This document shows positions 1 through 725 of a stretch of 725 nucleotides of DNA, piece by piece. The position numbers and the translations under genes are program-made. Under the pieces are notes generated by a model. It saw only the letters and a list, made by a program, of their open reading frames with translations. It made no database searches and was not told the DNA's origin. Source of the DNA: Escherichia coli (lineage in GTDB: Bacteria > Pseudomonadota > Gammaproteobacteria > Enterobacterales > Enterobacteriaceae); NCBI RefSeq assembly GCF_003334255.1, contig NZ_QOWU01000195.1; one strand, given 5' to 3'. Each line of letters begins with the position of its first letter. The first letter of the stretch is position 1.

Positions 1-635
1 ATACGCTTCCAGTCTTCGCGGTCGTTGTCGATAACTTCATTTTTTGCCCAGCGATGGATGCTGCCGTCAATGTTTCCGGCATCCACATCACCAGGCCAGA
101 GAGCGTAGGCCAGTTCGTCATCCAGTGTTTTCCATGTCTGCTTGTATTCGCGATGAATGGCAGCAATGACCGGGCTGATTTTTCCTGTTGAATTTTCAGT
201 GTGCTGTTGATTGGTTCTGGCGCGGGCGAGATCAACAACAGACGTGTATTTTCCGGTTTCCTTGCGTTCACCTTCGCGACGTTTTTTCCAGATGCGCATC
301 TCTGCCTGAATTTCGGGCCATTTGGCACCAGGCTTACATTTATGCTTAACCCACCCGATGGCATGCAGCTTAAGCTCCGGATACATGGCGTTAACTTCTG
401 GCATTTTCATCAACGCTTCAACAATATGTCCGTCGAATGTTGCCATGTCTTCCTGCAACAATTCCTGTGCGCTAATAACCATATCAACGGTGATGTTTTC
501 ACATGTGTCGAACTTAACCATGACAGCGTTCTGTACTTCAGGGGCCAGCTTGTCAAAAGTGACGTTCATCGGATCTGATTCAGTCTCAACCGGGACAAAG
601 GAAGCAGACTCCTCATCCCAGCGGTTTTCCTGCAT
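1..635 (-). CDS. Uncharacterized protein, N-terminal 211 codons; partial CDS whose C-terminus lies beyond position 1
   Basis: Seen in sequence: the minus-strand frame is open across 1..671, with the upstream in-frame stop (TAA, complement 674-672) inside the IS1 end. The first ATG is at complement 635-633. Translation: MQENRWDEESASFVPVETESDPMNVTFDKLAPEVQNAVMVKFDTCENITVDMVISAQELLQEDMATFDGHIVEALMKMPEVNAMYPELKLHAIGWVKHKCKPGAKWPEIQAEMRIWKKRREGERKETGKYTSVVDLARARTNQQHTENSTGKISPVIAAIHREYKQTWKTLDDELAYALWPGDVDAGNIDGSIHRWAKNEVIDNDREDWKR, then 2 nt of the next codon. Composition is protein-like (balanced, many D/E/K/R/W) with enterobacterial-style codons (ctg, gaa, aaa, ccg). Both + strand track ORFs are antisense to it and have shadow-ORF composition (F/C/H-rich). 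The start codon is uncertain: there is no strong Shine-Dalgarno before ATG 635 (only a weak GGA about 12-14 nt upstream), and there are alternative in-frame starts at TTG complement 662-660 (inside IS1) and ATG complement 569-567. No catalytic or nucleotide-binding motif recognised by eye. Confidence 0.7.
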   Translation of the reverse strand, partial: MQENRWDEESASFVPVETESDPMNVTFDKLAPEVQNAVMVKFDTCENITVDMVISAQELLQEDMATFDGHIVEALMKMPEVNAMYPELKLHAIGWVKHKCKPGAKWPEIQAEMRIWKKRREGERKETGKYTSVVDLARARTNQQHTENSTGKISPVIAAIHREYKQTWKTLDDELAYALWPGDVDAGNIDGSIHRWAKNEVIDNDREDWKR

Positions 636-648
636 ATATTCAGCATCC

Positions 649-671
649 GGTGATGCTGCCAACTTACTGAT
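649..671 (+). repeat. IS1 left terminal inverted repeat (IRL), 23 bp
   Basis: Sequence GGTGATGCTGCCAACTTACTGAT at 649-671. The partner IRR should lie about 745 bp downstream, outside the window, so the inverted-repeat pairing cannot be verified here. Confidence 0.85.
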
Positions 672-672
672 T
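660..672 (-). promoter_or_regulatory. IHF-like binding site inside the IS1 IRL
   Basis: Minus strand reads AATCAGTAAGTTG, against the IHF consensus WATCAANNNNTTR (one mismatch, G for A at position 6). Established knowledge: IHF binds within the ends of IS1. The match is by eye only. Confidence 0.4.
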
Positions 673-677
673 TAGTG

Positions 678-683
678 TATGAT
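678..683 (+). promoter_or_regulatory. Candidate -10 hexamer of the insA promoter (TATGAT)
   Basis: TATGAT is a 5/6 match to TATAAT, sitting 20 nt upstream of the insA GTG. No good -35 lies at 16-18 bp spacing (GCTGCC and CTGCCA are poor), consistent with a weak promoter overlapping the IRL and InsA operator as described for IS1. Exact promoter placement is not certain from sequence alone. Confidence 0.3.
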
Positions 684-692
684 GGTGTTTTT

Positions 693-698
693 GAGGTG
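693..698 (+). promoter_or_regulatory. Shine-Dalgarno (ribosome-binding site) for insA
   Basis: GAGG(TG) at 693-698, leaving a 5-7 nt spacer before the GTG start at 704. This is standard spacing. Confidence 0.6.
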
Positions 699-703
699 CT
701 CCA

Positions 704-725
704 GTGGCTTCTGTTTCTATCAGCT
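704..725 (+). CDS. insA: InsA (IS1 transposition repressor, also the N-terminal part of the InsAB' frameshift transposase); first 7 codons only
   Basis: GTG start at 704-706 followed by gct tct gtt tct atc agc, giving M-A-S-V-S-I-S, which matches the known InsA N-terminus MASVSISCPSC. The last base, 725, begins the next codon. Preceded by a GAGGTG Shine-Dalgarno. Confidence 0.85.

Follow-up and report, generated by a model that had tools for sequence, protein, structure and literature searches.

Very probable natural IS1 left end within the early-left exonuclease gene of a lambdoid prophage in Escherichia coli

The window analyzed here is a stretch of 725 nucleotides from Escherichia coli (RefSeq assembly GCF_003334255.1, contig NZ_QOWU01000195.1), and it consists of two parts that meet exactly at positions 648/649. 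Positions 1–648 are the interior of a lambdoid-prophage gene annotated as "exonuclease," which lies on the minus strand and has 823 codons when intact. Positions 649–725, on the plus strand, are the left end of the insertion sequence IS1, i.e., nucleotides 1–77 of the 768 nucleotides of the element. In all the collections searched, the matches to the prophage gene stopped at 648, and the matches to IS1 started at or slightly before 649, which is the canonical first base of IS1. The IS1 gene insA is directed away from the remnant of the exonuclease gene. An Rfam scan of the window returned a chance-level match only. One terminator-like hairpin followed by a run of T was found inside the coding region, on the strand opposite to the gene (262–279, plus strand), and the number of such hairpins in the window was at chance level (1 found versus 0.8 expected in shuffled sequences).

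The sequence at 649–725 was identical at 77 of 77 positions to each of three known IS1 copies: that of phage P1 (AF234172), the IS1B copy adjoining catA1 in plasmid R100, and one in the chromosome of E. coli HCP30S3_I2. The BLAST E value was about 1e-31, so the match is not due to chance. The P1 record carries the curated features "insertion sequence:IS1" (768 bp) and "terminal IR of IS1," as well as insA. IS1 is known as an element of 768 bp with imperfect terminal repeats, both ends of which are bound by the repressor InsA, and its transposase InsAB' arises by a −1 frameshift at an A6C motif (PMC12428005). The window ends upstream of the frameshift motif, insB, and the right inverted repeat. 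In the window, the first bases of the element, GGTGATGCTGCCAACTTACTGAT, form the 23-bp left terminal inverted repeat (IRL; 649–671, plus strand). This segment corresponds to the first 23 nucleotides annotated as the terminal repeat in P1 and is identical to the IRL of both the P1 and R100 copies; the IRL is the binding site of InsA and InsAB' (PMC12428005). The insA gene starts at IS1 nucleotide 56, as calculated from the P1 record (CDS at 1256, element start at 1201), and the comparison loci L002 and L005 agree. In the window, 22 nucleotides of this reading frame are present (704–725, plus strand), comprising the GTG at 704–706, six further codons, and one base, and the encoded MASVSIS is identical to the beginning of annotated insA. 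The promoter scan of the window reported a single promoter-like site, CTGCCA-16-TATGAT, at 656–683 on the plus strand. A weak promoter, PIS1, which drives insA/insAB' and partly overlaps the IRL, has been described (PMC12428005), and the site at 656–683 is consistent with it and may be assigned to PIS1. Compared with the IS1 copies of P1 and R100, the window has the same 77 nucleotides, including the 23-bp IRL, the promoter region, and the insA start at nucleotide 56, and differs in location alone. In contrast, there were 10 mismatches in 77 positions with IS1F. Judged by these letters, 649–725 is of the consensus IS1A/IS1B/IS1R type, and a length of 77 nucleotides resolves the isoform only as far as "not IS1F."

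The prophage part of the window was identical at 648 of 648 positions to the gene for WP_021565031.1 of E. coli G1/2, an intact allele of 823 codons, and showed 98.8% identity to TRITO_27 of phage Tritos. Present in the window are the final base of codon 75 and the codons from 76 to approximately 291, and the gene runs on past position 1. In the intact allele, and also in phage Tritos, the coding sequence extends 224 nucleotides beyond the base that matches 648, so that codon 75 is interrupted by IS1. The break follows base 224 of the coding sequence, with ...PALDSW75 before it and D76 AEY M80 QENRW after it, and the first 75 codons are missing on this side of IS1. The first-pass annotation, made from the letters of the window, had taken the minus-strand gene as lying beside IS1. 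This must be corrected: IS1 lies inside the gene, 224 nucleotides downstream of the start codon. The ATG at 633–635 (minus strand) is the internal codon for Met80 of the intact protein, and it resembles a start codon because the true 5' end is missing. In both E. coli G1/2 and phage Tritos, the gene order is int, xis, exonuclease, ydfD/DUF1482, dicB, and a RacR- or CI-type repressor, with the exonuclease gene on the minus strand. This gene order is that of the early-left arm of a lambdoid prophage.

The records for this gene use the names "exonuclease VIII," "exonuclease," and "3'-5' exoribonuclease domain-containing protein." The intact allele matched the profile phrog_2082 (PHROG 2082, phage exonuclease) over its full length, at positions 1–823 of 823, and the fragment in the window aligned to positions 76–290 of the same profile. 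In the Rac prophage, the corresponding place in the early-left operon is taken by RecE (exodeoxyribonuclease VIII), and the central region is common to both proteins, residues 246–626 of the intact allele matching the RecE equivalog profile NF007259. However, assignment to this equivalog was rejected, as its cut-off is 1269 bits and the intact allele reached 284.9, with the alignment confined to the central region. The C-terminal catalytic domain also differs from that of RecE: the sole domain found by the Pfam scan of the intact homolog was an Rv2179c-like DEDDh 3'-5' exonuclease domain at residues 642–813, and no RecE-type C-terminal nuclease domain was found in it. Thus, the gene widely named "exonuclease VIII" (locus L007, 1401–3872) is a mosaic of a RecE-like center and an Rv2179c-like DEDDh C-terminal domain. 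The N-terminal region, which is the part encoded in the window, had no assigned function in the profile libraries consulted. The families PF27430.1 and PF27432.1 are precomputed for N-terminal fragments of the exonuclease protein and were not reported by our Pfam scan.

Based on these matches, we infer that the window very probably contains a natural genomic IS1 left end inside the 823-codon exonuclease gene of the early-left region of a lambdoid prophage, with the junction within codon 75. The prophage sequence gives way to IS1 at the precise base of the element's natural terminus, which is the signature of transposition, and IS1 transposition would have created the junction. The view that this is a natural IS1 copy in accessory DNA, and not vector sequence, had been put forward from the letters of the window, and it is borne out by the identity of the flank with the prophage gene over all 648 positions. 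This particular insertion site was absent from every collection searched. Exact 35-mer and 30-mer junction patterns had no matches in species-representative genomes, JGI metagenomes, or IMG/VR viral contigs, and no unbroken match of 725 nucleotides was present in the phage, plasmid, or complete E. coli collections. A protein homology search returned many fragments from draft assemblies, and none of the 12 sequences that were read starts at this junction.

Complete genomes yielded five other IS1 junctions within this gene, located −29, +11, +44, +79, and +170 nucleotides from the junction in the window. Listed by the number of the comparison locus, they are at position 3660 of L002 (strain 300033), 3620 of L003, 2193 of L009, 2228 of L010, and 2319 of L011. 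Together with the window, this gives six IS1 junctions in different strains, all within the first 253 nucleotides of the exonuclease gene. In all six, the left end of IS1 faces the body of the gene, an orientation affected by bias, since the search used a same-strand joining rule, and one of the five neighbors has a target duplication. The closest neighbor is an IS1F copy in E. coli strain 300033 (NZ_CM128588), which lies in the same gene, in the same orientation, and 11 nucleotides away. RefSeq annotates the gene in this strain as two pseudogene pieces, with the 5' fragment beyond IS1F. This case differs from the window in isoform (the 10 mismatches in 77 positions given above), in position, and in having a verified 9-bp duplication, GGAATCGAG.

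The target-site duplication of IS1 is 9 bp, and occasionally 8 bp. If the event in the window was a simple insertion, a 9-bp duplication of TCAGCATCC would be expected, with the 5' fragment of the gene on the far side of IS1. By comparison with the 9-bp duplication of the neighboring IS1F insertion, the predicted target site is TCAGCATCC at 640–648, and the genome beyond the window would then continue with the right end of IS1 (...ATCAATAAGTTGGAGTCATTACC), followed by TCAGCATCC and CATGAATCGAGGGCAGG. The same main explanation also admits a second route, in which an IS1-mediated adjacent deletion or a recombination between two IS1 copies, and not a simple insertion, would have joined the element to the gene. 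Unrelated DNA would then lie on the far side, and the 5' end of the gene, with some of the prophage DNA upstream of it, would have been lost from the genome. This route is consistent with four of the five comparable junctions, which lack a target duplication and continue past IS1 into unrelated DNA: ISNCY in one case, a terminase in another, an AAA ATPase in a third, and, in the fourth, a deletion next to ydfD of approximately 220 nucleotides, as estimated from annotated gene coordinates. Conversely, IS1F inserted cleanly in strain 300033 and left a 9-bp duplication. As one of the five neighbors has a duplication and four do not, we consider a simple insertion and a deletion or rearrangement to be about equally probable.

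We also considered whether the source genome carries this prophage gene uninterrupted, with an IS1 k-mer wrongly attached at the end of the contig by an assembly or sequencing error. The IS1 part is exactly 77 nucleotides long, which is a typical k value for de Bruijn assembly, the junction is absent from all the other records searched, and draft assemblies very often break up the exonuclease gene. At its left edge (positions 1–3), the window ends where a draft contig of 596 nucleotides, representative of 1,196 member sequences, also ends. The 725 nucleotides probably represent an entire short-read contig that has a repeat at each end and stops one k-mer (77 nucleotides) into a multi-copy repeat, and a contig end of this kind would be the normal signature of a real repeat boundary. 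Moreover, the break matches the true IS1 terminus to the base, which is rare for a random chimera, and real IS1 junctions exist at the five positions given above in complete genomes, so an insertion event of this type is entirely plausible. An assembly chimera is therefore very unlikely.

We next compared the junction with those of Tn9 and of cloning vectors. The cat gene of pACYC184 derives from Tn9 (PMC4574204). A Tn9 cat–IS1 junction of 115 nucleotides and a pACYC184 segment of 386 nucleotides were used solely as queries. For the first query, full-length matches at 100% were obtained in at least 679 plasmid records, among them R100 and pFL129. The latter is a small plasmid that carries catA1, tet(A), and a pi replication gene of the R6K type, and it looks like an engineered vector. 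The second query, which comprises the region upstream of cat, the IS1 remnant, and the p15A origin, had 100% matches in BL21(RP), Rosetta2-DE3, and BL21-RIPL, strains that we take to carry pACYC184-derived tRNA plasmids. These matches adjoin catA1 and added tRNA genes, and in Rosetta2-DE3 there is also a transposase fragment annotated as partial. The vector remnant of IS1 is cut approximately 137 nucleotides into the element, where it meets the p15A origin, as judged from the start of the matches to p15A-type plasmids. In Rosetta2-DE3, the sequence registered as the chromosome (L008; NZ_CP083274.1, 4450237–4455622) contains two tRNA-Arg genes, catA1, the IS1 remnant, the p15A origin, and tRNA-Ile. 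This pACYC/pRARE-type content is flanked by an ISAs1 pseudogene on one side and by the prophage lysis genes rrrD/essD on the other, and it is either a real integration or an assembly artifact.

These matches at 100% support the statement in the first-pass annotation that 649–725 is the IS1 end retained in Tn9-derived backbones such as pACYC184. Its further statement that the same junction appears in common cloning vectors holds for the IS1 end itself and fails for the junction, as the flanks differ. The 13 bases before IS1 are GCAAAGTGCGTCG in Tn9, R100, and the vectors, and ATATTCAGCATCC at 636–648 of the window, in agreement with the difference that had been suspected there. The vector flank has nothing in common with the prophage sequence. 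The same applies to the pRARE/pRIL-type vectors and pFL129: the sequence of the IS1 end is shared, whereas theirs abuts the region upstream of catA1 and that of the window abuts codon 75 of a prophage gene. The upstream sequence of catA1, ...GGCGCAAAGTGCGTCG, does not precede the IS1 left end in the window. Because the vector flank differs from ATATTCAGCATCC, no vector match crosses the junction, and none of the vector-type records compared matched across 636–648 into the minus-strand gene. That an IS1 end from a pACYC184/Tn9-type backbone was joined to genomic DNA as a contaminant is scarcely credible and already largely refuted: the 77 nucleotides are indeed identical to the remnant in pACYC-type backbones and Tn9-bearing plasmids, but they are equally identical in thousands of natural IS1 copies, so that identity alone is no pointer to a vector, and the IS1 sequence begins precisely at the natural end of the element, which fits transposition and not a random vector chimera. 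Because prophage DNA reaches to the very terminus of IS1, the 77-nucleotide match to the pACYC184/Tn9 remnant should not be flagged as vector contamination here.

For the gene, the IS1 junction inside the exonuclease reading frame, whether made by simple insertion or by deletion or rearrangement, would have cut off the remnant from the early-left promoter of the prophage and from its own start codon. Because of the loss of both, the remnant is most likely a dead pseudogene, and RefSeq annotates comparable cases in this manner: IS1-split copies of the gene in five other strains are registered as pseudogenes "missing N-terminus." The promoter scan detected no outward-facing promoter on the minus strand of the window. 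A candidate hybrid promoter, with TTGGCA in the IS1 end (662–657, minus strand), a spacer of 18 nucleotides, and TATATG in the flank, failed the criteria of the scan; its transcript would begin downstream of Met80, and we rated it as weak and unlikely. When the minus strand is read outward from the IS1 end, a stop codon at 674–672 is followed by an open exonuclease frame with an in-frame TTG at 662–660, so that gene callers could predict a spurious fusion start (MAASPDAEYMQ...). Exact look-ups of the 220-amino-acid product from this TTG and of the 211-amino-acid product from Met80 found no record of either. The minus-strand reading frame should be annotated as an IS1-disrupted pseudogene without its N-terminus, and not as a gene starting from the ATG at 635–633.

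The clustering of the six junctions raises the question of whether the first approximately 250 nucleotides of the exonuclease gene may be a recurrent landing site of IS1 or a recurrent deletion endpoint, a reading that we regard as doubtful. A rough count, subject to bias from both shared ancestry and the same-strand joining rule, gave 31 records at approximately 13 positions among about 3,490 genomes carrying the gene, mostly in IS1-rich strains, and corresponds to an enrichment of at most a few-fold above the uniform expectation. Given this modest excess, the joining-rule bias, and the shared ancestry, we do not claim an IS1 hotspot. If the pattern is recurrent, IS1 may prefer targets in this region, IS1-mediated deletions may be nested there, or selection may favor the disabling of the early-left operon, which would ground the prophage.

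The window contains a known element and a routine gene disruption, and the erosion of a resident prophage by IS1 is common in E. coli and Shigella. Polar effects on xis and int, which lie downstream, are probable, and these would help to immobilize the prophage.
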